Shown here piece by piece: positions 12,477 through 60,656 of a stretch of DNA of 60,656 bases (position 1 is its first letter; each line of letters starts with the position of its first letter). The notes under the pieces are model-generated. The model was not told where the DNA came from. It searched no databases and worked only from the letters and a program-made list of their open reading frames with translations. The DNA is from a virus. Its lineage: Duplodnaviria; Caudoviricetes. The DNA lies in the IMG/VR virus record IMGVR_UViG_3300021197_000990, positions 1 to 60,656 of that record, one strand, 5' to 3'. Position numbers and translations under genes: made by a program.

Positions 12477-12486
12477 GGAATCTATT

Positions 12487-14791: not shown

Positions 14792-14796
14792 TACAA

Positions 14797-17172: not shown

Positions 17173-17235
17173 ATAAAAAAAAACCCTACTACGGGATTCC
17201 TTACGGAGTCCTATAGTAGGGTATATTTTTTTTTT
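17173..17235. terminator. Bidirectional intrinsic terminator between the two arms
   Basis: A-run, long hairpin CCCTACTA...TCC-TTAC-GGA...TAGTAGGG, then T-run, between convergent genes. Confidence 0.92.
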
Positions 17236-24596: not shown

Positions 24597-24605
24597 AAAA
24601 ATCTC

Positions 24606-26315
24606 CTATTTGTTTTCTCTTCGGTCAACACCTAGCTTATCTGCTACGAAAACATAGAAACCACTTTCGTGATCGTTAGCCATCGCATCATACTTATCGC
24701 GAACCTCTTGATCAAGCCCAGTCCATTCTTGGATCTTCTTGTTCATAAACAGGTTAGCAATATCAGACACGTTGCCTTCTACTTTATTAAGTTTCATAAC
24801 ATCAGCAACTTTGTTATTGAGCAAAGCCATCTTGCCTGCATCAACCCATTGAGGGTTTTCAGGTGTAGAACCTTTAGCTTCAAATAACTCAGGTGTACCA
24901 GTTCTAGTACGAATAACTAGCTGATTAAGGAACGGACGAATGTCTCTTGGACGTTTGCCTGAGGCCTTAGCATAGTTACGCATATCAGCATAAGCTTGGT
25001 CTAGCAGTACACCAGCTTCATTAGGATCGATGTTATTGGCTGCTGCCCATTGACCTACATGATGTGCTGCGGTTCTAGGATTAAGATCCGTAAATGTACG
25101 TTTATCTTCACCTTCACCGAATGTACCAAACTGTTTCTGCAAAGACTTAAATGTATCTGCAGCTACTGATTGAGCTTTGTATTGACGTTCATTATATTCT
25201 TTAGAACCTTTAACTCGGTAAGGATCTGTCTCATATTGTTCAGGATTAATTGGTTTACCACCAGCAGTGACATATACTTTATTACCAGTTTTATCTTGAG
25301 CAACATAAGCTTTAATTTGCTTACCAGTCTTTTTGTCTTGAACCAACGTTGGGTTAGTTCGATCTATCTTAACTGTACTCTTAGTAATTGGTATTAAGTC
25401 TTTAGCATCACGTGACTGTTTGTAAGCTTCTATGCTGTCTGAAGTGTATTGCTTTTCTTCATGTAGCTTTTGTACTTTCTGCTTATGACCTAACTGTTGT
25501 CCTAAGTAACGCTTACCAGTCCAACGTAAAGAACCACCATGAGAGTAACCAAGAGCTCTACTACCTAAATACATGATTGCTGCTTCAGCTAGATCCTCTT
25601 CATTAAGTAAACCTTGAGCTGCATTACCTAGTGCTGTTAGAACTTTCTGGAACATACTAGGTTTTTCTTGAGCTAGATTCTCACCAGCATCCTTTTGATC
25701 TTCATCATCTACTTGATCAATGGCTGCTTCATCACTTACAGACTTCTCATCGTTTACTGTTTGTGCTAAGACATTTATTGCTTTCTGCTCTGGTTCTTCT
25801 GTCACAGGAACTTCATCAGTCTTAGGAACAACACCATTATATCGATCTCTTGAGTCACTTGTGCTGATCACACCACCAGTTAACTCTGTGATATCATCAG
25901 CTAAGTTCTCTGTAAATTGAGGTTTAAACTTCTCACGACCATCACCTACTTCAACATCTGCAAACTCATCTATATCATTATATAAAGGAACTTGCTGTTG
26001 AGGTCTAGGAACAGAGTTGGAGGTAGGTTGAAACGGCACACGACCATCACCAACATTCTCTTGTGCAAACTCATCTATATCATTATAAGTAGTCTGACTT
26101 ACAGGTTGAGCTTGTTGCTGTGGAACACCAGCGTTACTAGCCATATACTCTAGACCTTGCTGCTGCATCTGACCAACTGGCATCGTCATCAACTCCGGCA
26201 CTTGAGGCTGTGGCACTTGAGCTTGCTGAGGATCTAACATCTTTGGAATGTCAAACTCCTGAGTAATGGTGTTACCATCTTTATCTTTGACAGTCATTTT
26301 CTTTACTTGATTCAT
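24606..26315 (-). CDS. Putative internal virion protein
   Basis: Position; Q/P-rich N-terminus with duplicated YNDIDEFA...VGDGR. Confidence 0.6.
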   Translation of the reverse strand: MNQVKKMTVKDKDGNTITQEFDIPKMLDPQQAQVPQPQVPELMTMPVGQMQQQGLEYMASNAGVPQQQAQPVSQTTYNDIDEFAQENVGDGRVPFQPTSNSVPRPQQQVPLYNDIDEFADVEVGDGREKFKPQFTENLADDITELTGGVISTSDSRDRYNGVVPKTDEVPVTEEPEQKAINVLAQTVNDEKSVSDEAAIDQVDDEDQKDAGENLAQEKPSMFQKVLTALGNAAQGLLNEEDLAEAAIMYLGSRALGYSHGGSLRWTGKRYLGQQLGHKQKVQKLHEEKQYTSDSIEAYKQSRDAKDLIPITKSTVKIDRTNPTLVQDKKTGKQIKAYVAQDKTGNKVYVTAGGKPINPEQYETDPYRVKGSKEYNERQYKAQSVAADTFKSLQKQFGTFGEGEDKRTFTDLNPRTAAHHVGQWAAANNIDPNEAGVLLDQAYADMRNYAKASGKRPRDIRPFLNQLVIRTRTGTPELFEAKGSTPENPQWVDAGKMALLNNKVADVMKLNKVEGNVSDIANLFMNKKIQEWTGLDQEVRDKYDAMANDHESGFYVFVADKLGVDRRENK

Positions 26316-26324
26316 AACTATCTC

Positions 26325-27047
26325 CTATTTCATTTTGCTATCAAAGTAGCGATTAATTTTTATTCCACCAATCTCTTGATCTTCAGGTCTAACTAGCTCA
26401 TCACCTGCCGCTGTCATATCTATAGTTCTTATTTCAGGAACTTCAGCGCCGTACGGATCGCCTATGCTTGAACCATCACCCAATCCTGATTGACCATTAA
26501 CAGGTCCATCTAATCCTGGCATAGTTACCATGTTTCCACGATCTATTGCATTTATGATATCACCACCTGTTGCACTCGCTTCTGTTGTAGTGTTTCCTCC
26601 ACCAATGACTATAGGATTAACTATAGGTGGTGTTGTAGGAGGAGCAGTCACAACTGGAGGTGCTGCTGGAGGCGGAGTCGGTGTAGCTGGAGGTGTATAA
26701 ACTGGAGCCGGTGGTTGTTGAACCACTGGTACCTCGTTTTGAGGTGGACTCACAGGATCTTGTGCTGGAACTTGTGGCTTAGGATTTCTTAACCTAAAGC
26801 CAGGCTGAAAGTCAGGTATTGGATCTGCATACGGATCATCTGCTACTGGAGCTACTGGAGCTTGCTCAGCTGTCGTTGGAGGAGTTACACCAATATCCGG
26901 TTGAGGCATTGGCATACCTGTTGGAGGCATCTGCGTCTCTGGGATAGTAACTCCTGGTGTCATACCTACGTTACCAAAAGATACTTGAGGTTGTGGAATA
27001 TTGTAGACTTGTGTATACTGTCTAGACCAATCTGGATTCCAAGTCAT
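26325..27047 (-). CDS. Proline-rich, probably disordered virion protein
   Basis: ORF with AAGGAG RBS. Confidence 0.65.
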   Translation of the reverse strand: MTWNPDWSRQYTQVYNIPQPQVSFGNVGMTPGVTIPETQMPPTGMPMPQPDIGVTPPTTAEQAPVAPVADDPYADPIPDFQPGFRLRNPKPQVPAQDPVSPPQNEVPVVQQPPAPVYTPPATPTPPPAAPPVVTAPPTTPPIVNPIVIGGGNTTTEASATGGDIINAIDRGNMVTMPGLDGPVNGQSGLGDGSSIGDPYGAEVPEIRTIDMTAAGDELVRPEDQEIGGIKINRYFDSKMK

Positions 27048-27056
27048 AGTATCTCC

Positions 27057-27590
27057 TTAAATGCCTAAGACACCTTTAAATAGTGGGTTATTTTTAAAGC
27101 CATTAAACTGAGTTCCATTAGTGTTAGCCATCTGCTGAACTGTTAATGGTCCTGCTAATGGATTCACTGTGTTGCTTTGTGGAGTAATGTTAGATAGACC
27201 TTCAACTGAAGCTTGCATAGCTGGTGCTGCAGCCTTTGGAGTAACTGCATCAGCTGCAACAGAGCTTGCTGTTAGTTGCTTAGGAACATCAGGCATAGTT
27301 AGTGGATCTGTTGTAAGTGCTTTCTCAGCACCACCAGACATCATACCAGTTAGACCTTCTGTAGCTTTACCCATAAGAGTAGAACCTGCAGCTGAAGCCA
27401 ACGTGCTCTTCAAGTCTACGGTACCTTTACCACCTAGCTGTCCACCTAATGATGCACCAATCTGTCCACCTAATGGACCACCAACAGCAGTGCCAAGTGC
27501 ACCACCTGCTATAGTTCCTAGCATGCCTAGTAGTGGATCACCACCACCACCTTGTTGTATTAAAGCTGGGTTAATTTTTGCGACTGCCAT
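27057..27590 (-). CDS. Gly-rich putative ejection (pilot) protein
   Basis: Glycine-zipper GxxxG segment; coupled to the upstream gene. Confidence 0.6.
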   Translation of the reverse strand: MAVAKINPALIQQGGGGDPLLGMLGTIAGGALGTAVGGPLGGQIGASLGGQLGGKGTVDLKSTLASAAGSTLMGKATEGLTGMMSGGAEKALTTDPLTMPDVPKQLTASSVAADAVTPKAAAPAMQASVEGLSNITPQSNTVNPLAGPLTVQQMANTNGTQFNGFKNNPLFKGVLGI

Positions 27591-28207
27591 TATTTACCAC
27601 CTCCGCCTTGAGAAGTTTGAGTCTGACCTTGTGGTGCAGAACCTAAATAACCAAAGAAACGTTCAGCAGCTTTAGCTTCGCTATCAAGACCTTCTTGTTC
27701 AAGACCACGTTTAGCTTGCTCAGCGTTAGTTAAGATACCTGCAGCACGTTGTTTAGCTTGTTGATCAGCAGCAGATAATTCCATACCGCGATCTAACACA
27801 GCAGCTTCACGAGCACGATCAGCTCTTGCAGAACCTAAAGCACCTTGTTGTGCGCCTTGAATTTGACCTTCAGTGTTTCGCATAGCATTCACTAAGTTCT
27901 CAGCACCTAAGCCTTCTTGCATTGTTTGTTGTGCCATGTTACCAGTTTGGTCTAATGCATCTTGCATACCAGCAGTATCTGCTACTTGACCTAGTTTACC
28001 TGATTCATACAGACGACGAACATCGCCTAACACAGGAGTAACATGACGTTTAATATCTGGATCAATTGATGTTGATGTGGTTTGTTGTCCACCACCACCG
28101 CCACCGTTGGCGATATTCTTATTTACTACTCGAGCAACTTCTGCTGGCAAGTAGTCCAGACCAATTGATAAGTCTGTTTGTTCAAATGAGTTACCATACT
28201 TAGACAT
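27590..28207 (-). CDS. Putative ejection/internal virion protein
   Basis: GGGGG-QQTTST, GALGSARA, Q/A-rich helices. Confidence 0.6.
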   Translation of the reverse strand: MSKYGNSFEQTDLSIGLDYLPAEVARVVNKNIANGGGGGGQQTTSTSIDPDIKRHVTPVLGDVRRLYESGKLGQVADTAGMQDALDQTGNMAQQTMQEGLGAENLVNAMRNTEGQIQGAQQGALGSARADRAREAAVLDRGMELSAADQQAKQRAAGILTNAEQAKRGLEQEGLDSEAKAAERFFGYLGSAPQGQTQTSQGGGGK

Positions 28208-28910: not shown

Positions 28911-28925
28911 CCCATAAGGGTTACA
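28911..28925 (-). promoter_or_regulatory. Putative late phage-RNAP promoter TGTAACCCTTATGGG
   Basis: Four intergenic copies; ends in GGG like T7/T3 promoters. Confidence 0.75.
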
Positions 28926-29779: not shown

Positions 29780-32700
29780 CTACTTAAATATAAATAAACC
29801 AACTTCACTAGCTGAACCATTGTCGGTCACGCTTACTGTTTTTGTTGTTGTTCCTGTAACCGTGTACTCAACACCTGATGCAGAGCTAGAGTTAGCTGCA
29901 CCTGATCCTATAGGTAATATCTCAGTTGCGGCTTCAGGCACTGTAACATTAGTGCTACCAGATCCTGAAGATACATCTAAGTTCCCTGCATATCTTATTA
30001 ACAGTTCATTACCATTTAGTGATACGTCACCATTTGCTTTGATAATCTCAATGCCATACTCTCCAGCTGAACTAGTCGGAGGGTTATTAACTTCTGTGAC
30101 TATCACATCTTTCTGCGCATTCACTGAAGCATAACCATCGTTAACAGTTAAGGTTACTGTATAAGTTCCTGCAACCGTTGGAGTAAATGACCAAGTTGCA
30201 GTTGATGAAGCTGCTCTATTGAAAGAGTTAGTTCCATCTGTAGCAGTATAAGCATAAGTTAACGAGTGACCGTCAGCATCACTAGAACCAGCTCCACTAA
30301 CATTTACCGGATCTCCCTCTTCACCACTTGCTGGGGCAGTTAGTACTGCTACAGGCGCTTGGTTGTCTAAGAGAATAGTAAAGTTCTGTGTAACGCTATC
30401 TGTCCGTCCTAAACTATCAACTACATCAAGAGTCACACTACCAGCTGTATCTACAGTAACATCAGTAAATGTAGCTGTAGTATTCTGAGAGCTTGTAGAG
30501 GACAACGTGATTGGTCCTGTAGATGACCAAGTCCATGAAGTGATAGTAACACCTGCATCTAACGTTGCAGATCCAGTGAGTGCATCTGAGGTACCTTCTA
30601 GCGGCGTTGTAGAACCTACTGAACCGATGGATGCTGTCAAGGTGCTAGGAGCAAGTTGTGTTGCTGTAGCATCCAATGTATCCGTATCTCCGTTACGAGT
30701 AGCTGTAACTCTAAACACTGCGGATCTCTGAGATCCTGCGTTGCCAGTCCATGTGACAACACCTGTAGAAGAGTTTATAGTAGCTGCTGAAGATCCTGAT
30801 ACTTTAGAGTAACTTAAAGTACCTGTACTGGTTATAGAAGGCGAGACAGTTCCTGCTGGAGCGGTCTTATTAGCATAGCTATAGCTAGAGATACTTGCAC
30901 CTCCTTGTTGCAGAGATGTAGCATCTACTGTGATAGTCTGTCCGTTCCTAGAGAATGTACCTCTAACTAACACAGATCTATCTGCTGTACCTTCATTTGC
31001 AGTCCATGTAACAACACCGGTACTTGTATTCACTGTTCCAGCACTAGAGCCAGAGACTTTAGAATAAGAAACAGTTGAGTACACTCCACCTACAGTAGGA
31101 CTAACTGTCCCAGCTGCAGCATTCTTAGTTGTGTAGCTTAATGTTCCTGATACGTTACCTAACTGCGTAGCCGTAGCATCTACTGTATCTGTATCTCCAT
31201 TACGCGTAGCTGTAGCTCTGACTGTGATAGACCTTGAGTTAGTTGAGGTGTTTGTTCCAGACCAAGTAACAGTACCGGTACTAGAGTTAACTCCACCTGC
31301 TGCATCTCCTGAGATCTTAGTGTAGGTCACAGTATCTTGAACTCCGCCAGTGGAGTCAGACTGAGTAGTTATGTTAGGATTAACTGAAGCATAGCTTAAG
31401 GTTATTGTAGCTCCACCTTGTTGCGTACAATTAACATCTACTGTATCTGAGTCATCACTTTGCGTGAAGACACCACGGACGACACAAGATCTCTCAGAAG
31501 TTCCTTCATTAATAGACCATGTGACTTCACCAGTAGAAGTGTTAACTGTTGCAGCTGATGATCCTGAAAGTTTAGAGAAAGTAACTCCACTATACGTTCC
31601 AGTGATAGAAGGACTTATTCCTCCTGCTGCAGCGTTCTTAGTTCCATAACTGAACGACCCATTTGTTCCAGCGAACTGCTTACAAGTAGCATCAAACGTA
31701 TCTGTATCACTATTCCTAGTTACAGTAGCTCTGACAGTTATTGTTCTATCTGAGCCAGTTTCATTTGCGCTTGAGAACGTAACTACACCAGTACTAGAGT
31801 TAACAGATCCTGCTGCATCTCCAGACTGCTTAGCATAGCTTATAGTATCATAGGTACCTGAGACTGTTGGTGATCTTGTAGTAGTTCCTGAGCTCAAGTT
31901 AGAATATGACAAGCTTACACTCGCTCCACCTAACTGAGTACTAGTAGCATCCACAGTATCTGTATCACCGTTTCTAGAAGCTGTAGCTCTAACTACACAT
32001 GATCTATTTGCTGTAGCTTCGTTCGCAGTCCACGTCACAGCACCTGTACTTGTGTTAACAGTAGCAGCGGCATCACCTGATATCTTAGCAAAAGATATAG
32101 AGTCATGTGTTCCGCCAATAGTAGCGTTCACAGTTCCAGAGGCTGCTGACTTGTTTACATAACTTAATGAAACAGTTGCACCACCATTCTGGGTAGCTGT
32201 AGCATCTGCTGTGTTCGTATCTCCATTACGAGTAGCTGTAGCTCTGACTGATATAGATCTAGCCGAAGTGCCTTCGTTAGTTCCAGACCAAGTCACAGTA
32301 CCTGTACTAGAGTTTACTGTACCAGCTGCATCGCCCGATAGTTTAGAATACGAGACAGAAGAATATGTTCCACCTGTAGTATCCACTTGCGTTGTGATGT
32401 TAGCATTAACATTAGAGTAACTTAATGATACTGATGCTCCACCTAACTGAGTACAAGTCGCATCGATAGTATCACTATCACCATTCCGTGTGACGGTAGC
32501 TCTAACTGTGATAGATCTAGATGCAGTACTTTCATTATTAGAAGCCCACGTCACCACTCCAGTTGAGCTGTTAACTGATCCTTGAGAATCACCAGACACT
32601 TTAGAGTAACTTAAAGTAGTGTAGGTTCCACTGATAGTAGGACTTACATCACCTGATCTAGAGTTCTTATCAGCATAGCTCAATGTCGCAGATGCTCCAC

Positions 32701-35700
32701 CTTGCTGAGTTGCCGTAGCATCAGAAGTTGCAGTATCTCCATTACGAGTAGCAGTAGCTCTCACTACACAAGATCTAGAACTAGACGATTCATTATGAGT
32801 CCAAGTAACTATTCCTGTAGAAGTATTGACACTTGCTGCTGAAGATCCTGAGACCTTAGAGTAACTCACAGAAGTGTATGTACCACTCACAATAGGTGAC
32901 TGATCTCCTGATGTAGCGTTCTTAGTCCCATAACTGAGTGAAACGTTAGCTCCGCCTAGTTGAGTCTGAGTTGCATCTACAGTATCTGTATCTCCATTAC
33001 GAGAAACAGTAGCTCTCACAGTTATTGATCTGCTTGAAGTAGAAGGGTTAGCGCTTATCCAAGAGACTACACCTGTGCTTGAATTAACAGAAGCGTTATT
33101 CTGTGTTCCAACCTCAGAGTATGATATTGAGCTATACGTACCTGAGACTGTTGGTGACTGCGTTAACACATTAGCATTGATATTTCCATAACTTAAAGCT
33201 ACACTAGCTCCACCTTGCTGCGTCATAGTTGCATCAGCGGTGTTTGTGTCTCCATTTCTAGTAGCAGTAGCTCTAATGACGCAAGATCTTGAGGCTGTAC
33301 CTTCATTAGCTGTCCAAGTGACTACACCTGTAGAAGTGTTAACTGTTGCAGCTGATGATCCTGAGACCTTAGAGTAACTTACAGCACTGTATGTACCACT
33401 TATACTAGGTGTAGATGTACCTGCTGCTGCATTTCTAGTAGCACCTGTTAGAGATACTGAAGCACCTCCTAATTGTGTACAAGTTGCATCGACAGTATCG
33501 CTATCACCATTTCTAGTACTTACAGATCTTACTGTTATTGATCTTGAGCTAGTGCTCTCATTGTTAGAAGCCCATGTCACCGCTCCTGTAGAAGCATTAA
33601 CTGATCCTTGAGAATCACCGCTAAGCTTACTATATGATATAGAAGTGTATGTTCCACTAACTGTAGGACTTACTGATCCAGATCTAGAGTTTTTATCAAC
33701 ATAAGATAATGTATGACTGGTACCACCTTGTTGTGTACTTGTAGCATCTGCAGTATCTGCATCACCATTGTTGCTTACCGTAGCTCTTACGACACAAGAT
33801 CTGCTACCTGTTCCTTCATTAAGCGTCCAAGTCACTGCACCTGTTGTAGTGTTAACAGTAGCGGCTGACGATCCTGAGACCTTAGAGTAACTAATACTAG
33901 AGTATGTTCCTGCTATTGAAGGGTTCACTGTTCCAGAAGTAGCATTCTTAGTAGCATAACTAAAAGATGTTATAGAAGAACCTGCTAACTGAGTAGCTGT
34001 TGCATCCACAGTATCTACATCTCCATTCCTAGAAGCTGTAGCTCTTACGACGCAAGATCTAGAACTAGCTGCTTCGTTCAGTGGCCATGTAACAGCACCT
34101 GTTGTTGTATTAACAGAAGCGTTAGCATCTCCAGACTGTTTAGCATAACTGATACTAGAGTATGTACCACCCGGACTGGCGTTTTGAGTTCCACCAGATG
34201 CAGCAATGTTACTGTAACTTAATGAAACTGAAGCTCCACCTTGTTGAGTAGCAACGACGTCAGATGTATCTGTATCACCATTTCTAGAAACAGTAGCTCT
34301 AATCGTAGCTGTTCTGCTACCTGTTCCTTCATTAGCTGTCCACGTGATCTGACCTGTGCTAGAGTTAACAGTACAAGCTGTACTTCCTGATACTCTAGCA
34401 TAACTGATACTAGAGTACGTACCTGCAATGGTAACGTTAACACTACCTGCTACAGCATTCTTAGTGCCGTAGCTGAAAGATGTTATAGCAGCACCACCTT
34501 GTTGTGTAGCCACTGCATCTGCAGTATCTGTATCACCATTTCGTGTCACTGTAGCTCTTATTGTAGCTGTGCGAGAACCAGTTCCTTCATTAAGCGTCCA
34601 TGTTATTTGACCCGTACTAGAGTTAACAGTACAAGCTGTACTTCCTGATACTCTAGCATATGACACTGAACCAGTGGTAGTTATTGTAGCGTTGACAGAC
34701 CCTGCTGCTGCATTCTTAGTAGCATAGCTAAATCCAGAGACTGATGCTCCACCAAGTTGAGTAGCTGTTGCATCTACTGTATCAGTGTCTCCGTTACGCG
34801 AGGCTGTAGCTCTAACCGTTATTGATCTATCAGCTGTGCCTTCATTGACTGAACTCCAAGTCACTACACCTGTAGAACTGTTGACAGTACCAGCAGCATC
34901 ACCTGAAAGCTTAGCATAACTCACAGAACTATATGTTCCGGTCGTACTGTCACCTTGAGTAGTAATATTTGAGTTTACATTAGCATAACTTAACCCGATG
35001 GTTGCACCACCTTGTTGAGAGGCAACTGTTGATATAGTTCTTGATACTCCACTTAAGCTTATTGTAGCTCCAACGGTAGAAGTCCTAGATGCAGATCCTT
35101 CATTGTGAAGCCATGTTAACGTTCCACTAGAGTTAATTGTAGTTGCTGAACTGTTTTCAGTCCATGTTCCTATACTTGAGTAGTTACCAGATGCTGATAC
35201 TGCAACACTACCTGATGCAGCGTTCTTAGTAGCATAGCTGATAGTACCTTGTAGTATCGTTGTAGTCGTCGTAGCGCTTCCACTAAACGAACCACCAGAC
35301 CAAGATAAAGTATATCCAATGCTTGTTGATCCATTGTTTGGAGCTGCTACTGAGGTAGCTATACTTTCATTATCTTCTGTAGTAGTTACTGTTCCACTAT
35401 TAATTGTAGCATTAGTGTCGTTACGTTTTACTGTCCAGTTAATATTTGTACCAGTACTTAAGTTAACTACAGAACCAGTGATGCTTACAGTACCACCTGG
35501 CACTACAACTGCAGTGCTGTTTATATTACCTGATACAGGAGTTGTAACTGCAACTGTGTCTACATTAGTCGTTGTAGATCCATTACCACCATTAGCAACT
35601 GGACGTCTTGATTGCAGAGTATAAGTTCCTGCACCTCGGTTTGTTACACTAACATTCGAACCACTACTTGATTGTTCAGTAGAGTTCGGAGTAAACCAGT

Positions 35701-37483
35701 CTCTAGCTACTGAGCCACCATTAACTAACCTATATTGACTCGTACTTGATAAGAGTCTAAACTTGACTAAGAAAGTAGACTCACTACCACTTAGCTCAAT
35801 TAAATTGTTAGTAGTGCTCGATGAGTTAGATACAAAACCAGCTGTTGAACCCGTGTTGTACGCCATTGTTTTTGAACCAACAGATGATATTGCATTACCA
35901 GAGACGTTAGATCTCTTGGTCCACCCATAGTAAGTAACATTACGAGTTAACCCAGTGTAAGAGTTAGACGATTGCCATGCAGCATCTCCTGCAGCTGGTG
36001 TGGCTGAAGAAGTTTTAAGTATGTATGTTGTAGTTCCACCACTACCACCAGATCCTGAGACTGTAGCCGAAGCTGTTGTTCCAGAAGTAAATGATTGTGA
36101 TACTGTAACAGATGTATCTGCACTTGGAGCTGATGGATTAACAGTTATTGTGTACGTATATAAAGTAGTAGTATCTGTTTGCCATAAATAAAATTCAGCA
36201 AACGGATCGTATACAGCAGACTGATCGCGACGTCTAACAGTGAAGCTATAAGTTCCAGTACTGCCTGGATTATAAGAGATAGTGTGAGAGTTACTGTTGA
36301 TTGCATTTGTAACACTTTCAGTTCCTGATGAAGCACTAGAGCTTATATCAAAAATAGTACGCACCGCTCCATTTGAAGCTGTCTGTATATAGTTGTTACC
36401 TTCTGTTCTGACGGTAGAGTATGTTTGAGATTGTGTTATGGTAGATGAAGTTCCACCACCTGAACCACCTGATCCTTCTTGAGATGCAGTACCTACTGTT
36501 AACCATCTAGAGTAACCATTCCTTGTAACTTGTCTATAAACTGTAACAGACCTAGCACTAGATCCTGAGTTGGATGCCCAAGTTATAGTTCCGTTTGACG
36601 TGTTTATTGTTGCTCCATTAGTGCTACTGCCACCGGCAGAAGTTACTGCCCATGTTCCTGCAGTTCCAGTAAATGTTGGACTACCTGATGGAGACTCTGT
36701 GCCTCCACTGGATACTTCTTGAGAGTATGCATAGGCTCCAGAAACGCCTGGTCCACCTAGCTGGGTGACTGTTCTATTAGTGTTAAATGAACCTGAAGCA
36801 TTTGTCGCGGTACAAGTTACAGTTGCAGTTCTTGAACTAGTAGAGGTATTAGCGCTATCCCAAGTAATGGCACCAGAGCTAGAGTTTATACTAAGTAGCG
36901 AACTCGATTCTGAATAGCTATACGTTGGAGCTGGAGAACCATTTGCAACTGGTGATGTTGATAAGCTAGCAGTAGCTCCGCTATTTGCATTACCACTATT
37001 CCACACTGGTTGAGTAGTGAAAGAAGTTGGTGCAGATCCAGAGCTGACTACAGTAAACCATAAATATTTAGTATTTGTAACAAGACTAGCTTTTGGATCT
37101 GTAAAAGTTCTTTGTACTATCTTTATTGGGTAGGTACCAGTATTCGCAGAAGTTACTGTCCAAGTTCCGGATACTGGAAGAGTAGCCCAAGTCTGTCCTG
37201 ATCCATTGTTTGTATCTGTACCAGAAGCTTGCTCACCTGTATTTCCAGGAATGAAGACGTCATTAGGATCTGCGCGGAACTCCACGGAGAACATTGATTG
37301 ACCTTCATAACAATCCATTTCAATTGTATCACCTTGCGTGATTGACAATGGGTTGGTTGGTGGAGCAGTAGAACTATTACTAAATGCACCATTAATCTGA
37401 GCGGCTGTGTAGCTACCTGGAGAGCTAGTGTAAGCTTGTGCACCTGTAGATTGGTTTGCTATGTTGACATTCTTTAAAGCCAT
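29780..37483 (-). CDS. Giant Ser/Thr-rich fibre/adhesin with ~20 BACON/Ig-like repeats and PKD-like domains
   Basis: 18 tandem ~85-aa repeats (TW..N....RS..VRAT..RNGD.....TQ.GG) plus two near the N-terminus; C-terminal NQAPVA...SSDADG...GTYTVTLTVNDG. Confidence 0.85.
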   Translation of the reverse strand: MALKNVNIANQSTGAQAYTSSPGSYTAAQINGAFSNSSTAPPTNPLSITQGDTIEMDCYEGQSMFSVEFRADPNDVFIPGNTGEQASGTDTNNGSGQTWATLPVSGTWTVTSANTGTYPIKIVQRTFTDPKASLVTNTKYLWFTVVSSGSAPTSFTTQPVWNSGNANSGATASLSTSPVANGSPAPTYSYSESSSLLSINSSSGAITWDSANTSTSSRTATVTCTATNASGSFNTNRTVTQLGGPGVSGAYAYSQEVSSGGTESPSGSPTFTGTAGTWAVTSAGGSSTNGATINTSNGTITWASNSGSSARSVTVYRQVTRNGYSRWLTVGTASQEGSGGSGGGTSSTITQSQTYSTVRTEGNNYIQTASNGAVRTIFDISSSASSGTESVTNAINSNSHTISYNPGSTGTYSFTVRRRDQSAVYDPFAEFYLWQTDTTTLYTYTITVNPSAPSADTSVTVSQSFTSGTTASATVSGSGGSGGTTTYILKTSSATPAAGDAAWQSSNSYTGLTRNVTYYGWTKRSNVSGNAISSVGSKTMAYNTGSTAGFVSNSSSTTNNLIELSGSESTFLVKFRLLSSTSQYRLVNGGSVARDWFTPNSTEQSSSGSNVSVTNRGAGTYTLQSRRPVANGGNGSTTTNVDTVAVTTPVSGNINSTAVVVPGGTVSITGSVVNLSTGTNINWTVKRNDTNATINSGTVTTTEDNESIATSVAAPNNGSTSIGYTLSWSGGSFSGSATTTTTILQGTISYATKNAASGSVAVSASGNYSSIGTWTENSSATTINSSGTLTWLHNEGSASRTSTVGATISLSGVSRTISTVASQQGGATIGLSYANVNSNITTQGDSTTGTYSSVSYAKLSGDAAGTVNSSTGVVTWSSVNEGTADRSITVRATASRNGDTDTVDATATQLGGASVSGFSYATKNAAAGSVNATITTTGSVSYARVSGSTACTVNSSTGQITWTLNEGTGSRTATIRATVTRNGDTDTADAVATQQGGAAITSFSYGTKNAVAGSVNVTIAGTYSSISYARVSGSTACTVNSSTGQITWTANEGTGSRTATIRATVSRNGDTDTSDVVATQQGGASVSLSYSNIAASGGTQNASPGGTYSSISYAKQSGDANASVNTTTGAVTWPLNEAASSRSCVVRATASRNGDVDTVDATATQLAGSSITSFSYATKNATSGTVNPSIAGTYSSISYSKVSGSSAATVNTTTGAVTWTLNEGTGSRSCVVRATVSNNGDADTADATSTQQGGTSHTLSYVDKNSRSGSVSPTVSGTYTSISYSKLSGDSQGSVNASTGAVTWASNNESTSSRSITVRSVSTRNGDSDTVDATCTQLGGASVSLTGATRNAAAGTSTPSISGTYSAVSYSKVSGSSAATVNTSTGVVTWTANEGTASRSCVIRATATRNGDTNTADATMTQQGGASVALSYGNINANVLTQSPTVSGTYSSISYSEVGTQNNASVNSSTGVVSWISANPSTSSRSITVRATVSRNGDTDTVDATQTQLGGANVSLSYGTKNATSGDQSPIVSGTYTSVSYSKVSGSSAASVNTSTGIVTWTHNESSSSRSCVVRATATRNGDTATSDATATQQGGASATLSYADKNSRSGDVSPTISGTYTTLSYSKVSGDSQGSVNSSTGVVTWASNNESTASRSITVRATVTRNGDSDTIDATCTQLGGASVSLSYSNVNANITTQVDTTGGTYSSVSYSKLSGDAAGTVNSSTGTVTWSGTNEGTSARSISVRATATRNGDTNTADATATQNGGATVSLSYVNKSAASGTVNATIGGTHDSISFAKISGDAAATVNTSTGAVTWTANEATANRSCVVRATASRNGDTDTVDATSTQLGGASVSLSYSNLSSGTTTRSPTVSGTYDTISYAKQSGDAAGSVNSSTGVVTFSSANETGSDRTITVRATVTRNSDTDTFDATCKQFAGTNGSFSYGTKNAAAGGISPSITGTYSGVTFSKLSGSSAATVNTSTGEVTWSINEGTSERSCVVRGVFTQSDDSDTVDVNCTQQGGATITLSYASVNPNITTQSDSTGGVQDTVTYTKISGDAAGGVNSSTGTVTWSGTNTSTNSRSITVRATATRNGDTDTVDATATQLGNVSGTLSYTTKNAAAGTVSPTVGGVYSTVSYSKVSGSSAGTVNTSTGVVTWTANEGTADRSVLVRGTFSRNGQTITVDATSLQQGGASISSYSYANKTAPAGTVSPSITSTGTLSYSKVSGSSAATINSSTGVVTWTGNAGSQRSAVFRVTATRNGDTDTLDATATQLAPSTLTASIGSVGSTTPLEGTSDALTGSATLDAGVTITSWTWSSTGPITLSSTSSQNTTATFTDVTVDTAGSVTLDVVDSLGRTDSVTQNFTILLDNQAPVAVLTAPASGEEGDPVNVSGAGSSDADGHSLTYAYTATDGTNSFNRAASSTATWSFTPTVAGTYTVTLTVNDGYASVNAQKDVIVTEVNNPPTSSAGEYGIEIIKANGDVSLNGNELLIRYAGNLDVSSGSGSTNVTVPEAATEILPIGSGAANSSSASGVEYTVTGTTTKTVSVTDNGSASEVGLFIFK
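30653..35248 (-). repeat. 18 diverged ~255-bp coding repeats
   Basis: Counted in the translation. Confidence 0.85.
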
Positions 37484-55060: not shown

Positions 55061-55075
55061 CCCATAAGGGTTACA
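55061..55075 (-). promoter_or_regulatory. Putative late promoter TGTAACCCTTATGGG
   Basis: Exact copy of 28911-28925. Confidence 0.75.
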
Positions 55076-55080: not shown

Positions 55081-56748
55081 TCAAAGCCACTTAGTATCGT
55101 TACTAAAATCTATAGCTCCGGTTCTCTGACGCCATGAGACATTGCTTCTAGATAGCTTATCCCAATGAGTACGTAGTACTTCACAACCCATAGCTAAAGC
55201 CATAACTGTGTCATCATAACATCCTGGTGCTGCTTCAGTCTTACCTGTTGCAGTAGACACATAATCCTTCAATTCTTGAATCATTACGTTAGATGGTATG
55301 TTGATCTCTTCATTCTCTATTAGGTTCTTTAGATTACCTATGATTGCAGGCTTAGATGCTGAGGTTGTCCTAAAACCTAAGCGTAGCCCTTCATCGTTAG
55401 AGACATTAGCTATTTTAGTCTGCTTATATAAGTTGATATAGTTCATAGACTCTAGCTTCTGCAGCGTAGCAATACCCATACTGTTACTCTCTACACATAA
55501 TAAAGCATTATTGTAATAACGCCCTAGGTAGAATAGGAACTCTCCATACAGACTAGGATCAATCCTATTGTCTCTATATAAAGCTACTACTCTGTGTTGA
55601 GCATCTAATACTACAGCTGCTGAACTATCTTGTCCTACACCTAATGCTACATCGGCTGCGATTACATAGTTACTATCAAAGTCTGGGAAGTCCCATATCT
55701 GTAGTTTACCCTCGCGGCTTTCATCAAACATCTTGCTGTGCGGATCCCACGTCATGTTACGCTGGGCTGCTGCAGGAAGTAGCGCGTCCAGTTTCTCTGT
55801 GTTGAATACGTTACTACCACTTACAATGAACGCTTCATCTGGCGTTGCTGGATACTCTTGTTTGAATTTGAGTTCTCCACCTTCTGCAATTTTGAGTCTT
55901 CTCCAATATAATTGGTCAAGGGATAGATCATACTTCTCTTGAAGCTTCTCCTCCTCTAAAGAGAGCTCCATCCCCTCCGGTGCCTCTCTCTGATACTCCT
56001 GAGTCCAGAACCATGGTAGGAAGATAGGAATATACTCGTTCTCTCCAGCCATAGCACCTTTCCATAGACGGTAGAATTCACCCTGAGCACCATTAGCGGT
56101 AGACTCTAGAATAACCTCGGTACCTGCAGCCTGTGAGATACCTTGGAACATACCAGCAAGTATCTTCTCATCGTGTGTCCAGAAGGCAACCTCAGACAAG
56201 TGAGCTATCGTTGGTGTTGTACCACGTCCCGCTTCCGGTGAACCGGCTGTGTATAGTCTATAAGATCCTATAGCCTCCTTATCTCTATACCATGGGCTAT
56301 TTATCTTTATCTCTTTAGCATTAGACGTTATCTCTTTAGGTTTAAGATCTCCATCCATATTCTTAATTAAGTTCTTACTCATACCGAACAGTGCATCAGA
56401 GGTAGCACTATCGTGAGCCATAACTACAGATCTAGAGTGGGGTGAGAAGTAAGACTTCCAGAATACCCTACCTGCACAGTACGTACTTATGCCTTGTTGT
56501 CGGGCTTTAAGGATTATAGCTCTAACCTTACCTGTCTCTTCAACCTGCTTAGCTAGCTTGTCAGTAATATACTTCTGCGCTTCATTTAGATGGAAGGGTA
56601 CAAAGCCCTTACTAGCATCTTTAGTTACAATTTGTATCTGCTCCTCAGCGAACTTAGCGAAGTCCGTTGAGTAGTCTTTAAGTTTATCACGCTTATCCTT
56701 CTCCTTGAGGAGCCGAATAGCCTGAGCCTTAGTAATCTTATTAGTCAT
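55081..56748 (-). CDS. terL: Terminase large subunit
   Basis: ILKARQQGIST, HLSEVAF, LESTANG, ADVALG, DDTVMA. Confidence 0.96.
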   Translation of the reverse strand: MTNKITKAQAIRLLKEKDKRDKLKDYSTDFAKFAEEQIQIVTKDASKGFVPFHLNEAQKYITDKLAKQVEETGKVRAIILKARQQGISTYCAGRVFWKSYFSPHSRSVVMAHDSATSDALFGMSKNLIKNMDGDLKPKEITSNAKEIKINSPWYRDKEAIGSYRLYTAGSPEAGRGTTPTIAHLSEVAFWTHDEKILAGMFQGISQAAGTEVILESTANGAQGEFYRLWKGAMAGENEYIPIFLPWFWTQEYQREAPEGMELSLEEEKLQEKYDLSLDQLYWRRLKIAEGGELKFKQEYPATPDEAFIVSGSNVFNTEKLDALLPAAAQRNMTWDPHSKMFDESREGKLQIWDFPDFDSNYVIAADVALGVGQDSSAAVVLDAQHRVVALYRDNRIDPSLYGEFLFYLGRYYNNALLCVESNSMGIATLQKLESMNYINLYKQTKIANVSNDEGLRLGFRTTSASKPAIIGNLKNLIENEEINIPSNVMIQELKDYVSTATGKTEAAPGCYDDTVMALAMGCEVLRTHWDKLSRSNVSWRQRTGAIDFSNDTKWL

Positions 56749-56885
56749 TATGAGTCCTCATTCTGTATAGACAAATAATACTTAATGGTGAAGGGGGTAA
56801 AAGCCCTTTGGTATACCTATATTATTTTTATATGTCTGCTATTTGCTAATATAATTCAGGTGGCCCCAGGGTTCCTTAGAGTTCA

Positions 56886-56899
56886 CCATAAGGGTTACA
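56886..56899 (-). promoter_or_regulatory. Putative late promoter upstream of terL
   Basis: TGTAACCCTTATGG(TG) on the minus strand. Confidence 0.7.
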
Positions 56900-57376
56900 T
56901 CAGGGATTATGCTATGTGGAGTAGACTATCAGTGACTGTGAGATGCTGTGGGGAGACTATTAGGAGACTATGAGATCTTAAGGGTGAAGGGGGTAGCTTA
57001 TGTTAGTCTAAGCTCAGGGCAGCTATGTCTCAGTCAACCTATAAAGTAGGTAATAATATATAGTACCCTTAATAATCCCACGGGCCCCCTCAACTCTCCC
57101 CTCACTCCCTCCCCTAATCCTCTCCCTCCCAGTGATTTACTCCGGGATACTACCAGTCACCGTGGGTATTATAAGGTCTTAGGGTTGATCTGAGGGATCC
57201 TGAGGGTGTATCGTGAGTAGGGTATAGGAGCTTAGAGTGCTTTAGCGGTGATCTTGCGGTGGGATTAGGACTTGGAGGTGGCTGTGAGTGGGCCGTGGGG
57301 CAATGGCTTATATCAGATCCTAAAGTTCCCTACAGTTTCTTGTAGTCTACCTACATTGTCTACTATTTAACCTTCT

Positions 57377-57391
57377 TGTAACCCTTATGGG
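57377..57391 (+). promoter_or_regulatory. Same motif in the opposite orientation, pointing into the early region
   Basis: TGTAACCCTTATGGG on the plus strand. Confidence 0.65.
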
Positions 57392-57654
57392 TCCTGGGGT
57401 TTCTATAAGTCCTATCTACTATAAGTATACTCTATGATCTTATATACTTACTCTACGATCATATAGTCACCTGTGTGTATCACCTGTGAGTTACCCGTGA
57501 GTACCTGTGAGTGTGTGGTACTGTGAGTATAGACTATAAATATAGACATAAGATAGATGCTAACAGGCTAGAATAAAGGGGAGATGTAGGGATTAATTTG
57601 TCAGCAGTTGTTTATGTATCTTAATGGTGAGGAGTGTCTATTATGTCTACGTAT

Positions 57655-57844
57655 ATTGTGTTGCTTCGCAACCCAACCTGACGTTTGGTATCTCAGAGCA
57701 TTGTGTTGCTTCGCAACCCAACCTGACGTTTACTGTAGTCTGCTGCTGTTAGCAATAGCTTACGAGCATTGTGTTGCTTCGCAACCCAACCTGACGTTTG
57801 GTGTCTTAAAGTATTGTGTTGCTTCGCAACCCAACCTGACGTTT
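57655..57844 (+). promoter_or_regulatory. Four identical 32-bp repeats containing an N4 vRNAP-type hairpin promoter
   Basis: ATTGTGTTGCTTCGCAACCCAACCTGACGTTT at 57655, 57700, 57768 and 57813; template strand GTTGC-GAA-GCAAC. Confidence 0.78.
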
Positions 57845-57886
57845 ACTGAAGCCTGCAGCTGCTCCTCATGATACTAGACGATATGG

Positions 57887-57906
57887 TGTCCACGTGAACG
57901 TGTCCA
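57887..57906 (+). promoter_or_regulatory. Motif C copy
   Basis: TGTCCACGTGAACGTGTCCA. Confidence 0.65.
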
Positions 57907-57940
57907 CTCTCATGGTATCTTGTATATCACGTAATGGTTA

Positions 57941-58041
57941 GGCCAGCCGATTGGTCCGAGGTACAGAAGTCTTTGTATCAGGTTCAAGCACGAATACGTC
58001 TGATCAGCGAAGTGATCCAGGTTACAAAAGTCCATGTAACT
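57941..58041 (+). ncRNA. Candidate structured RNA: duplicated two-hairpin module
   Basis: Two modules with covarying stems and AAGTC in the second hairpin. Confidence 0.4.
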
Positions 58042-58088
58042 TCATACGGCAATTCAACATCTAACTTAATAACCAAGAGGATTTTATT

Positions 58089-58184
58089 ATGTCTCCAGAA
58101 TGGATCGTATTAATCACATTAGTTTCAGTAGTATTAACAGCATCATGTCTTGGTGTTTTCTTAGCTAAAGTTATGGAGTGCTAA
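58089..58184 (+). CDS. Small membrane peptide, 31 aa (not in ORF track)
   Basis: GAGGA RBS; single hydrophobic helix. Confidence 0.6.
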   Translation: MSPEWIVLITLVSVVLTASCLGVFLAKVMEC

Positions 58185-58186
58185 TC

Positions 58187-58426
58187 ATGATGTATAAACT
58201 AACTAAAACTCATCAGCAAGGTCTAGTTGACGAATCAATAGTTTTGTTCAACATTTTAGATGAGCAGACTAACGATCCTAAGATGCAGGATAAAGTCGTA
58301 CTTATCTATATGTCTTACTATTCAGATGGTGAGACTACACAGTTTAGACAAGCAATGTCTAAGCAAGATGCTAGAAATGTTTATAGTAACTTACGTAAAG
58401 AAGGTTACTTTGCAGAAGATGCATAA
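58187..58426 (+). CDS. Hypothetical early protein
   Basis: GGAG RBS. Confidence 0.7.
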   Translation: MMYKLTKTHQQGLVDESIVLFNILDEQTNDPKMQDKVVLIYMSYYSDGETTQFRQAMSKQDARNVYSNLRKEGYFAEDA

Positions 58427-58434
58427 CTCCCATT

Positions 58435-58467
58435 ACCTCTGTTCCTTCGGGTTCAGAGGTCTTTTTT
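58435..58467 (+). terminator. Intrinsic terminator
   Basis: ACCTCTG..CC-TTCG-GG..CAGAGGT-CTTTTTT. Confidence 0.75.
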
Positions 58468-58492
58468 ATTTGACTACCAAGAGGATTTAGTC

Positions 58493-58810
58493 ATGTCAGA
58501 ATTTAAATATTATCGTGCAATGTCACGTAACGAGTATTCAGAATTATGTGTTGCTGATCAGTATGCAACCAACTTAAACACTAACACTTACTGGACTAAC
58601 AGCTATCATGCTGCTATGCAGTATTGTAGTGAAGGCCGTATCATTGTCGAGATTGTTCTTGATCGTGATATTCCAAGTCCATATCATGGCATCGCACACG
58701 GTGTTGATGAATATGGTGTTATGAACAATCATCATGAAGTTGTAATGACTCGTGGTTTGTTCAATGACCAACTAGTAAACGTACTAGAAATGCAAGAGTA
58801 CGAATACTAA
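58493..58810 (+). CDS. Hypothetical early protein, possible ADP-ribosyltransferase fold
   Basis: YYRAM..E, YWTNS...A..Y, HEVV. Confidence 0.65.
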   Translation: MSEFKYYRAMSRNEYSELCVADQYATNLNTNTYWTNSYHAAMQYCSEGRIIVEIVLDRDIPSPYHGIAHGVDEYGVMNNHHEVVMTRGLFNDQLVNVLEMQEYEY

Positions 58811-58876
58811 TAACGCTGTGTAGCTAATAGCTAGCGAGCAGTAACATTATATAAATCAACAACTTAGGTGATTATC

Positions 58877-59596
58877 ATGGAAATTTTATTAATGCTTTTA
58901 ATTGCTATCATTATGGTAGCATCTGTAGGTGCTGTGTCACGCAGCTTAAATAGTGACCTTGTTAAAGGTTACGTCAACATGGCTATCTTTATCGGTGGTC
59001 TAGTTCTAGCAACTTCAATGCTGCTTGCATTCGAAGCTACAGCTCAAGAACTGCAAGACGATGAAGCTGTCGAGTATGTCATGCTATCTGGCGACGTAGA
59101 TAAAGCTATGCTGCTTAAACTAAAGAATGCAATAGCTAAGTATCCAAACCTTAAAACTATTGCTCTAGACTCACCAGGCGGTTACGTTCATATAGGTTTT
59201 GAGATCGGTCACATTATTCGTGAAAACAATCTTAACACTTATATCTATGGTAACGGCTCATGTGCGTCTGCTTGTACTTATATCTTTATGGGTGGCAAGT
59301 ATAGAGGTATGCAATTCGGTGGTAAATTAGGTTTCCATCCTGCTCGTGCTGGTGGTTTTCCTGGTTCTATACCACTAAATGACATCTTGCTTGACGGTCA
59401 ACGTCTAAGTCTTGATGCTGCAGAGTACTTCTTAACTATGGTTAATGCAGACCACAGACTTAAGATTATTCAGTTCTTATCAAAGAGCTATCAGAATACT
59501 CATTATAGTCAAATGGATTGGTATGTACCACGTAAGGATAACTTGTCTCATACGAGCTTGTTCCATGCAGGTGTTGTTACACACTTCTTCCTATAG
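58877..59596 (+). CDS. Membrane-anchored ClpP/crotonase-fold protein (COG3904-like)
   Basis: Two N-terminal hydrophobic helices; LDSPGG, CASAC..IFMGG, LGFH. Confidence 0.8.
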   Translation: MEILLMLLIAIIMVASVGAVSRSLNSDLVKGYVNMAIFIGGLVLATSMLLAFEATAQELQDDEAVEYVMLSGDVDKAMLLKLKNAIAKYPNLKTIALDSPGGYVHIGFEIGHIIRENNLNTYIYGNGSCASACTYIFMGGKYRGMQFGGKLGFHPARAGGFPGSIPLNDILLDGQRLSLDAAEYFLTMVNADHRLKIIQFLSKSYQNTHYSQMDWYVPRKDNLSHTSLFHAGVVTHFFL

Positions 59597-59610
59597 TTAT
59601 ACTTAATTTG

Positions 59611-59630
59611 TGTCCACGTAAACGTGTCCA
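59611..59630 (+). promoter_or_regulatory. Motif C copy upstream of SSB
   Basis: TGTCCACGTAAACGTGTCCA. Confidence 0.65.
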
Positions 59631-59681
59631 CTTTTGTGAATATTATATTTAAATTTTTAGTCAACCAAGAGGAAATCTATT

Positions 59682-60212
59682 ATGACTATGATCACTGAAC
59701 CACGCACTGTATTCGTTAAAGATGTAACTTTAAACTATGCAAAACTAGTTAAACCAGTTAATCCTTTCGGTACAGAACAATATGAGTTGCAAATTGCGAC
59801 TACAGATTCTGCTACAGCTCAAACTATGCGTGACTTAGGTCTTAACGTTAAAGAGAAAGATGGCTCATTTACAGCTTCTCTTAAGCGTAAAGCACGCAAA
59901 GCCAATGGTGATGACAATGGTCGTCCTGTTGTAATAGATGCAGGTCTTAAGCCAATCGATGATAACCAGCTTATGAAATTAGGTAATGGTTCTGTCGGTA
60001 ACGTTAAGTTATACCAATATCCTTACGATGCTGCTGGTCGTAAAGGTACTGCAACTTCATTAACAGCTGTGCAAGTTGTTGATTTTGTTGAGTATGTTGG
60101 TGGTGGCGTTGAGGCTGGCTTCTCGGTTGTAGGTGATAGCTTACCTGCAGCATCTGAGCAAGACACTGTAGACGAGCAAGCTGAACCAGATATGGCAAGC
60201 ATGCCTTTCTAA
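59682..60212 (+). CDS. ssb: Single-stranded DNA-binding protein (T7 gp2.5-like)
   Basis: YAKL..P, GNGS.GNV, LTAVQVVDFVEY, acidic tail ending in PF. Confidence 0.85.
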   Translation: MTMITEPRTVFVKDVTLNYAKLVKPVNPFGTEQYELQIATTDSATAQTMRDLGLNVKEKDGSFTASLKRKARKANGDDNGRPVVIDAGLKPIDDNQLMKLGNGSVGNVKLYQYPYDAAGRKGTATSLTAVQVVDFVEYVGGGVEAGFSVVGDSLPAASEQDTVDEQAEPDMASMPF

Positions 60213-60656
60213 TATAGAATAAACCAGATGGTCCTTACGGATCGTCTGGTATTTTTTTTGGGATGATGTTTCATGGATATACTTACAGATTTAAGAGTAA
60301 TTCTCTTTATAATATTTGCAGTAATCGTATCTGCAGCTTTTTATCCTATAGAAACATGTGCAGTATTGGCAGTCTTTATACTTCAGCAACAGTTCTCCTT
60401 TTGGAGATCGTTTCTTCGGTCCACTCGTGGATCTTAGATTAATTTTTGCTGCGCGCCGAGATCGATCTTACAGATCGACACGTCACGACCAGATGTTCCC
60501 TCTGGAACTCCCTTAGGAGCAGAGGAGCGTTAGGAGCACAGGAGCGTTAGGAGCACAGGAGCGTTAGGAGCCAGGGAGCGGGAGCAGGAGCCTGGGGTGT
60601 GCCGGACAGGCGTCCATGAAATAATGTCCAGCTGAAGCTGTCCAACCATATAGGAT
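60091..60656. repeat. Terminal redundancy, copy 2
   Basis: Matches 1-559. Confidence 0.97.

Follow-up and report, generated by a model that had tools for sequence, protein, structure and literature searches.

The window analyzed here is the whole of the IMG/VR virus record IMGVR_UViG_3300021197_000990 (60,656 nucleotides (nt), about 40% G+C, CheckV completeness 100), and the element of interest is an array of four identical 32-nt units, ATTGTGTTGCTTCGCAACCCAACCTGACGTTT, separated by gaps of 13, 36, and 13 nt. Divergent transcription of terL and the early genes leaves a 1.2-kb gap, and the array is situated there in the same orientation as the early genes. The 32-nt unit with its hairpin is referred to as class A, and class B and class C denote other motifs of the window. 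The four units are located as follows:

57655–57686, + strand: repeat unit 1, with the hairpin GTTGC-TTC-GCAAC at 57660–57672
57700–57731, + strand: repeat unit 2, with the hairpin at 57705–57717
57768–57799, + strand: repeat unit 3, with the hairpin at 57773–57785
57813–57844, + strand: repeat unit 4, with the hairpin at 57818–57830

These coordinates bear out the four perfect 32-bp repeats, with the same three gaps, that were described in the initial annotation. The 13-mer GTTGCTTCGCAAC has exactly four copies in the record, every one on the + strand. With up to two mismatches allowed there are seven matches compared with 0.98 expected, a count reached in none of 100 shuffles. On the bottom strand, each unit reads GTTGC-GAA-GCAAC, with a 5-bp stem and a 3-nt GAA loop, and this hairpin, also described initially, is confirmed by both the sequence and single-strand folding. 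The single-stranded 32-nt unit folds at −6.2 kcal/mol (z −3.08) into a two-tier hairpin, in which an outer TTG/CAA pairing surrounds GTTGC-GAA-GCAAC. For the bottom strand of the whole array, the folding z is −4.65 and the centroid structure holds three of the four hairpins.

The array had also been described as a duplicated two-repeat block with diverged spacers and intact repeats, and the alignment agrees. Positions 57648–57748 and 57761–57861 are 90% identical, the two 13-nt spacers are 69% alike, and Tandem Repeats Finder reports a period of 113 with 1.8 copies. Among the 101 aligned nt of the two blocks, there are 10 differences and none of them falls within the 64 nt that belong to units (hypergeometric P = 1.8e-5), which argues that the 32-nt units are under constraint. 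A sigma-70 scan of 56600–58600 found five promoter-like sites (5.1 expected), none of which is in the repeats, and the same scan found no terminator-like site (G+C stem followed by a T run) in the repeats. An Rfam search returned no family at E ≤ 1, and a tRNA scan found none. In the terL/early gap, short CTGTGAG/CTGTGGGG-type repeat runs occur at 56900–57530 (the CTGTGAG-type run at 57465–57512) together with a pyrimidine tract at 57086–57126, and related loci have similar short-repeat runs at the matching place.

The hairpin is the one found in an early promoter of phage N4. In the N4 genome (EF056009), the identical 13-mer occupies 90–102, 52 nt upstream of the gp1 start at 154, and the complementary 13-mer is printed inside "P1 promoter" templates in the available part of a 2026 paper (PMC13434306). 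The initial match to promoter P1 is thus correct, as is the remark that the downstream bases differ (TTATGGACA in N4, CCAACCTGACG in the window). According to the accessible part of a review, the N4 virion RNA polymerase (vRNAP) recognizes −11A/G, −10G, −8G, and +1C on the template strand, and positions −17 to +1 are conserved (PMC4496689). The unit hairpin has the template purine at −11, G at −10 and −8, and the loop-closing G:C pair; because it is identical to that of N4 P1, it agrees with N4 at −11, −10, and −8 and in the loop features needed for extrusion. Rightward transcription would use the strand with the GAA loop as its template, and since the early genes are on the + strand, the array does point into them as had been claimed.

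The + strand genes extend from 58089 to the end of the record and from 1 to 16902, and comprise small early open reading frames (ORFs) and replication genes. The latter include a family A DNA polymerase (PF00476), and a 559-aa ORF (13112–14791) is in the same place as the annotated primase of Roseobacter phage CRP-7. The − strand genes extend from 56748 down to 17377 and encode the terminase, an SU10-type portal, and other structural proteins. CRP-7 is the closest isolate, with the same gene layout and with 55% identity in the portal and 34% in the RNA polymerase (RNAP). The taxonomy in the CRP-7 record stops at Caudoviricetes, and the phage studied here is not a schitovirus. The available part of the CRP-7 paper describes a novel group and mentions only a T7-like polymerase (PMC6918029). 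Among the papers searched, none ties CRP-7 to a vRNAP beyond a table listing, and a blastn search of 56700–58200 against GenBank phages returned no match.

Hairpins of a second class recur in the + strand block. Their locations in the window are listed below:

57886–57908, + strand: class B element B1, CCACG-TGAA-CGTGT followed by CCAC, 42 nt past the last unit
59610–59632, + strand: class B element B2, 50 nt ahead of the ATG at 59682
60621–60645 (equal to 524–548 in the end overlap of the record), + strand: class B element B3, about 20 nt ahead of the ATG at 566
6722–6746, + strand: class B element B4, about 35 nt ahead of the ATG at 6780, before the replication genes

The class B stems are CACG/CGTG or CAGC/GCTG, the loops are TGAA or TAAA, and TCCA(A/C) comes next. 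Each element is 20–55 nt upstream of a Shine-Dalgarno sequence and ATG, with the exception that B1 has this spacing only in variants that lack 57919–58062; in the window it is about 180 nt from the ATG near 58090. For comparison with relatives, 80 terminase-anchored loci were kept (terL 66–79% identical). Many of these have corresponding elements, such as gagcCACAC-NNN-GTGTGtctcttt or CACG-CAAG-CGTG, usually in two or three copies at about 400, 700–1800, and 5100–5500 nt from the terL start. In 20 aligned class B elements, all 100 cells are paired and three of the five pairs have changed on both sides (17 cells), a covariation score reached in none of 500 shuffles; this count covers class B only, as MAFFT put class A out of register. 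Class B may be a candidate promoter class of CRP-7-type phages. Three features make it look most like a hairpin promoter: every early or middle gene module has a copy ahead of it, conservation is seen in the flanks but not in the loops, and the phage encodes two single-subunit polymerases, with N4 and LUZ7 as precedents for hairpin promoters.

The array resembles class B in several respects. In both classes a two-tier fold is flanked by GT on one side of the stem and CCAAC(C) on the other, as in the in-register pair attgt|GTTGC TTC GCAAC|ccaacc (class A) and aatgt|CCAGC TGAA GCTGT|ccaacc (B3). The array units also fit the flank pattern of class B, namely G(T) before the stem, CCA(A/C) or TCTCT after it, the + strand, and a place before genes. 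Moreover, a GC-TTC-GC core occurs within class B flanks in some relatives, once in locus L048 and twice in locus L060, where the two copies form a tandem of 60-nt period in the corresponding part of the genome. Locus L010 has GTGGC-TTC-GCCAC in noncoding early DNA. In the same locus, from a close relative, the first early gene is followed by some 770 nt of noncoding DNA (700–1457, − strand) with several TAAA-loop hairpins, and sequence in CACGCTTCGCAGC context is also conserved in L006, L007, and L026; this stretch may be a noncoding RNA.

Two single-subunit RNA polymerases are encoded near the junction of the convergent gene blocks:

17377–20730, − strand: 1117-aa single-subunit RNA polymerase, the last gene of the late operon, without cysteine; candidate virion (ejected) polymerase
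14797–16902, + strand: 701-aa T7-like RNA polymerase (PF00940; PHROGs 414, 2166, 2051), the last large gene of the + strand block

The initial annotation had called the first of these a vRNAP-type enzyme, and its fold, its gp50-like position, and its place in a cysteine-free block are in line with that call. An AlphaFold model of the 1117-aa ORF (mean predicted local distance difference test score, pLDDT, 82.1; predicted template modeling score, pTM, 0.80) has a single-subunit RNAP fold. With this model, Foldseek gave E-values of 1.0e-14 to T7 RNAP and 2.7e-13 to the N4 mini-vRNAP (3c3l), and VIA gave Z 27.9 and a root-mean-square deviation of 5.3 with 564 aligned against T7 RNAP (8dh5_E), compared with Z 23.6, 6.8, and 755 aligned against the N4 mini-vRNAP (3c46_A). 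By the model, the fold places the enzyme no nearer to N4 than to T7. The homolog search, limited to proteins of 614–1955 aa, found 284 homologs of similar size; 120 among the matches listed are 812–1301 aa long. DGKTNG, TMTFGYG, and YDAFK are invariant in 32 sequences and, in our own reading, correspond to RNAP motifs A, B, and C. The family of the 1117-aa protein is encoded in four of the five related records examined, at 26–39% identity. Searches of the ORF against Pfam, PHROG, PDB sequences, and PDB profiles gave no RNAP match, and hence none to N4 gp50, and tblastn against GenBank phages gave no match. An hhalign comparison of alignment A1 with CRP-7 gp33, the positional counterpart, had a probability of 0.4 and lends no support.

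The gene is at the position of N4 gp50 as the last of the late operon, and its product is far shorter than the approximately 3500 aa of an N4-type enzyme with N- and C-terminal ejection and packaging domains. Six consecutive − strand proteins at 17377–28207 (1117, 1288, 569, 240, 177, and 205 aa; 3596 residues in total) are entirely free of cysteine. By contrast, 45 cysteines occur among the 8086 aa of the remaining late proteins, a rate at which about 20 would be expected in the block (Poisson P about 2e-9), and the 701-aa RNAP has 14. In the available part of one report, the LUZ7 and LIT1 vRNAPs are likewise described as free of cysteine (PMC3715699). The 1117-aa gene adjoins a PHROG "virion structural protein", the 177-aa protein of the block has a weak tail-lysin match, and the 1288-aa neighbor has chance-level matches only among PDB sequences. 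Judged from these sequence features, the block looks like a set of ejection proteins with a free-standing polymerase. A vRNAP-like call for the 1117-aa ORF is reasonable, and the enzyme would then be packaged in the virion.

A third motif, class C, is found upstream of the array and ahead of late genes:

57377–57391, + strand: class C motif TGTAACCCTTATGGG, 280 nt upstream of the array, pointing at the array and the early genes
56885–56899 (one mismatch), 55061–55075, and 28911–28925, − strand: class C copies ahead of late genes

With up to three mismatches, class C has six matches in the window compared with 1.37 expected. TGTAACCCTTATGGG itself forms a small ACCC-TTAT-GGGT hairpin, and the copies in the terL/early gap are arranged divergently. 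Motifs resembling CCTATAGGGA are found in the corresponding position of relatives, with three in tandem in locus L057. From its sequence, class C looks like the end of a T7-type promoter.

We therefore consider, with a probability of roughly 40%, that the units are extra tandem hairpin promoters for a phage single-subunit polymerase, accessory and strain-specific. That the array would work like class B is argued from four points: the entire 32-mer is constrained, and its location, its orientation, and its kinship with class B all fit. From these features we infer a route in which the template (bottom) strand of the inverted repeat would extrude and present the same GTTGC-GAA-GCAAC hairpin that is bound by N4 vRNAP, and the polymerase would recognize both this hairpin and its conserved flanks (GT before, CCAAC after). 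Transcription would start a few nt downstream, plausibly at G57680, the first top-strand G downstream (14 nt from the loop center at 57666), and would proceed rightward through B1 to reach the small early ORFs from 58089 onward. On this view, the array may be an optional element that reinforces the first promoter four-fold and arose by strain-level amplification, as close variants without the array keep only B1.

The reader could be either the 1117-aa cysteine-free enzyme, which is preferred as N4-like, or the 701-aa T7-like enzyme, as with the middle hairpin promoters of LUZ7. A promoter role with the 1117-aa enzyme specifically as reader is held only tentatively and is rather doubtful. In the proposed cascade, the ejected enzyme would transcribe early and middle genes from the hairpin promoters, leaving class C and the late genes to the T7-like enzyme; this is plausible because the 701-aa gene is at the far end of the + strand block and class C stands before late genes. 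Extending the scheme to the group, so that CRP-7-type marine podoviruses would eject a free-standing cysteine-free "mini-vRNAP" that reads a class B code, with the array supplementing the first promoter, is likewise somewhat improbable. The initial proposal of a tandem promoter battery for the 17377–20730 enzyme thus stands in part: orientation, position, the P1 hairpin, and the RNAP fold agree with it, and the +1 base, the absence from relatives, and the dispensability of the array do not.

Several observations weigh against a promoter role. Counting the register as in N4 P1 and P2 (11 nt from the loop center), C57677 is on the top strand and the template base is G instead of the N4 +1C, and the bases at −4 to −1 are CCAA, compared with TTAT in P1 and TTTT in P2. 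The alignment of class A with class B was made manually after MAFFT had misplaced class A, and the class A stem base (GTT...AAC) is without the invariant CCA...TGT(C) of class B. A generic scan for TGT plus a hairpin was not enriched (37 compared with 26.8 in shuffles, standard deviation 5.5), and since this is not significant the shared TGT is weak evidence. The class C motif 280 nt upstream, in the same direction, would also allow the hairpins to act in RNA instead.

Strain variation points the same way. Logan contigs of four marine runs were compared over 56000–59000, and two segments of the window proved variable:

57631–57881 (251 nt): skipped segment that holds the whole array, replaced by 7 other letters in contigs of runs X1 and X5
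57919–58062 (144 nt): second variable segment, skipped in X1, X3, and X5, with the joint 57918 to 58063

The joint from 57630 to 57882 is present in an 8100-nt X1 contig (depth 22.4) and in X5 (depth 4.7), which come from different studies. Because contigs of two marine runs skip 57631–57881, the array is dispensable to the phage. Array-bearing forms coexist, as 75-nt contigs of X1 and X3 cover 57770/57773–57844. The 37-nt island between the two skipped segments, which contains B1, is retained. In the second segment, a possible 59-aa ORF (57934–58113) has its start, and there are several small hairpins, including GATCA-GCGAAG-TGATC. In run X3, a contig over 57112–57620 is about five times as deep as its neighbors.

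The distribution of the hairpin is also unfavorable. None of the 80 related loci has the 13-mer, and none has the 32-mer at up to 10 mismatches. JGI metagenome contigs contain no exact match to the 23-mer made of the hairpin and downstream flank. When the same contigs were scanned for two 13-mer copies 25–55 nt apart, 93 stretches were found, representing 77 distinct arrays with 2–5 copies, periods of 22–68 nt, and G+C of 0.21–0.68. By a crude ORF calling, 29 of the 77 are inside ORFs (at least 70 aa), 23 are before an ORF on the opposite strand, 16 are more than 400 nt from any ORF, and only nine precede a co-directional ORF. When 27 proteins of N4 and 19 of the window were compared with the 93 loci, only one locus gave a match. 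The suggestion that the repeats independently support the vRNAP call therefore has to be dropped, and the N4 P1 hairpin sequence alone is not diagnostic of a vRNAP promoter, because many unrelated contigs contain tandem arrays of this 13-mer. These metagenome arrays (loci L097–L189) are on unrelated contigs, some over 100 kb, and their unrelated flanks often lengthen the palindrome; in L098, L103, L121, and L165, dispersed 13-mer copies each follow a GC hairpin and precede a T run. A tandem-pattern search of IMG/VR found only two contigs, both in giant-virus bins (L087 and L088).

An alternative is that the array acts at the RNA level. In this case, it would be transcribed from class C at 57377, and the early mRNA would carry the hairpins in its 5′ leader, where they could be stabilizers, processing or protein-binding sites, or decoys. 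Besides the class C motif aimed into the array, relatives have their CCTATAGGGA-like motifs about 110 nt before the first class B hairpin, and in L060 a TAGGGAGAG motif immediately precedes the hairpin in each 60-nt unit. Furthermore, class B covariation fits RNA pairing as well as DNA pairing. However, the stems are just 4–5 bp, the class B loops vary freely, unlike those of typical protein-binding RNA hairpins, and no Rfam family matches. The conserved letters at the stem base and in both flanks resemble a promoter footprint, and the explanation depends on class C, itself a candidate promoter. We regard it as fairly unlikely, and this judgment includes its extended form, in which class B would have the same role before each gene module.

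The array could also be an unstable hairpin minisatellite, similar to a variable number tandem repeat, with the very stable GCGAAGC/GCTTCGC mini-hairpin at its core. Such a repeat would come and go by slippage or recombination and would serve no function of its own, although it might have side effects such as pausing. Its presence or absence among near-identical strains, the lack of the unit in the 80 related loci, and the 13-mer arrays in 77 distinct metagenome cases and two giant-virus-bin contigs, mostly not promoter-oriented, would all be expected of such a repeat. It accounts less well for the 10 of 10 block differences that avoid unit nt, which would need either selection or highly precise gene conversion acting on all 32 nt, beyond the 13-nt hairpin. 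The flanks in common with class B and the irregular spacing of 45, 68, and 45 nt, which is no simple slippage ladder, also speak against it. An origin of this kind appears rather improbable.

Less probable still is an array of duplex protein-binding sites at the late/early junction, such as replication-origin iterons, packaging sites, or regulator sites. There are four direct repeats with a 32-nt footprint in the only large noncoding region, beside the terminase operon and near the CTGTGAG-type runs and the pyrimidine tract, and the entire unit is conserved beyond the hairpin. Against this, an origin or pac site should be indispensable and the variants do without the array, the 45/68/45-nt spacing is not helically phased, relatives keep other repeats there but not class A, and no candidate binding protein was identified. 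Finally, a CRISPR (clustered regularly interspaced short palindromic repeats) array or repeat mimic is ruled out by the irregular spacers of 13, 36, and 13 nt, which are not of near-constant length, and a decoy for co-infecting N4-like roseophages was rejected, as + strand GCTTCGC is absent from the first 3 kb of DSS3phi2 and EE36phi1 and absent from CRP-7.

Other features of the record were also noted. Its ends overlap, with 1–559 corresponding to 60091–60656 at 95–99% identity with small indels, giving a unit genome of about 60.09 kb. The length differences in the overlap are located in a 17-nt tandem repeat, TTAGGAGCACAGGAGCG, at 60513–60580, and IMG/VR labels the record "linear". The overlapping ends may reflect either circular permutation or a terminal repeat. 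For the relative G001, the IMG/VR "direct terminal repeat" is read as an overlap of a circular assembly and not as a physical end, because it falls inside the G001 late operon. Between the convergent gene blocks, at 17160–17240, a long hairpin (CCCTACTA...TAGTAGGG) with an A run and a T run on its sides looks like a bidirectional terminator. Early ORFs have a common extended ribosome-site motif, AACCAAGAGGA, at 58072–58093, 58476–58497, and 59654–59673, which is also present in relatives L012 and L013. A 2567-aa protein (29780–37483, − strand) is encoded with many diverged tandem repeats of about 255–258 nt (about 85 aa) at 30650–35250 and has a PKD/Ig-like Pfam match close to its C-terminus.

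If the units are promoters, transcription from hairpins by an injected single-subunit polymerase would extend beyond N4-like phages, with a much smaller stand-alone enzyme, and the setting would be an abundant ocean phage group with a sole isolate, on the Roseobacter RCA lineage. Hairpin-promoter recognition would then be common to virus families by descent or convergence, and promoter copy number would vary among strains. The presence/absence polymorphism of the array offers a natural comparison for promoter dosage, and the 1117-aa enzyme would be a compact candidate for the study of hairpin recognition. If the units are no promoters, they serve as a caution that the N4 P1 hairpin recurs in many unrelated tandem repeats. 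The interest lies mainly in the vRNAP-like enzyme, which stands alone, and in a hairpin code that spans the family, and less in the array.

Among known systems, the N4 promoters P1–P3, which are read by the virion polymerase gp50, are similar to the units in having a template-strand hairpin with a 5-bp stem and a GAA loop, identical in its 13-mer to P1, ahead of the first early genes and in the same orientation. The genome organization is also similar, with early and replication genes on one strand, convergent late genes, and a late region that ends in the gene of a single-subunit RNAP. However, the three N4 promoters are dispersed, and a gene and then a terminator come after each, whereas the window has four units in 190 nt with no gene between them and lacks +1C and the N4 bases at −4 to −1. 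Likewise, the N4 polymerase of 3500 aa has N- and C-terminal domains, whereas that of the window is free-standing.

The early phage T7 region provides another parallel, as the left end of T7 has tandem early promoters A1–A3, which are stacked strong sigma-70 promoters for the host RNAP. In both cases, several promoters, putative ones in the window, would be stacked before the first early gene and downstream of a phage-polymerase-type promoter. The T7 promoters are of the sigma-70 type, whereas the window repeats are without a sigma-70-like site.

In relation to tandem repeats of the GCGAAGC mini-hairpin in unrelated genomes, the window has the same exact 13-mer, and its copy number and period are within their range of 2–5 copies and 22–68 nt. 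Those arrays differ in that their flanks are unrelated and most are inside ORFs or before opposite-strand ORFs. The class B elements of CRP-7-type phages are closer, as they have GT before the stem, CCA(A/C) after it, a two-tier hairpin, and a place in the + strand early/middle block; they differ in being dispersed, in their conservation among relatives, and in their retention in the variants, whereas class A is clustered and strain-specific.

LUZ7 offers a precedent for tandem hairpin promoters. According to the available part of the LUZ7 study, its early promoters have a stem of at least 4 bp, a 3-nt loop, and a start-site G at 13–14 nt from the hairpin center; the two strongest early starts, mapped by ONT-cappable-seq, are in tandem 33 nt apart, and the middle polymerase uses a second hairpin class with a 3–4-nt loop (PMC9163698). 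LUZ7 differs in being an N4-like phage with a 3398-aa vRNAP and in that its start sites were measured, whereas those of the window are predicted from sequence alone. The window nevertheless has two hairpin classes, as LUZ7 does, and a G at 14 nt from the loop center.

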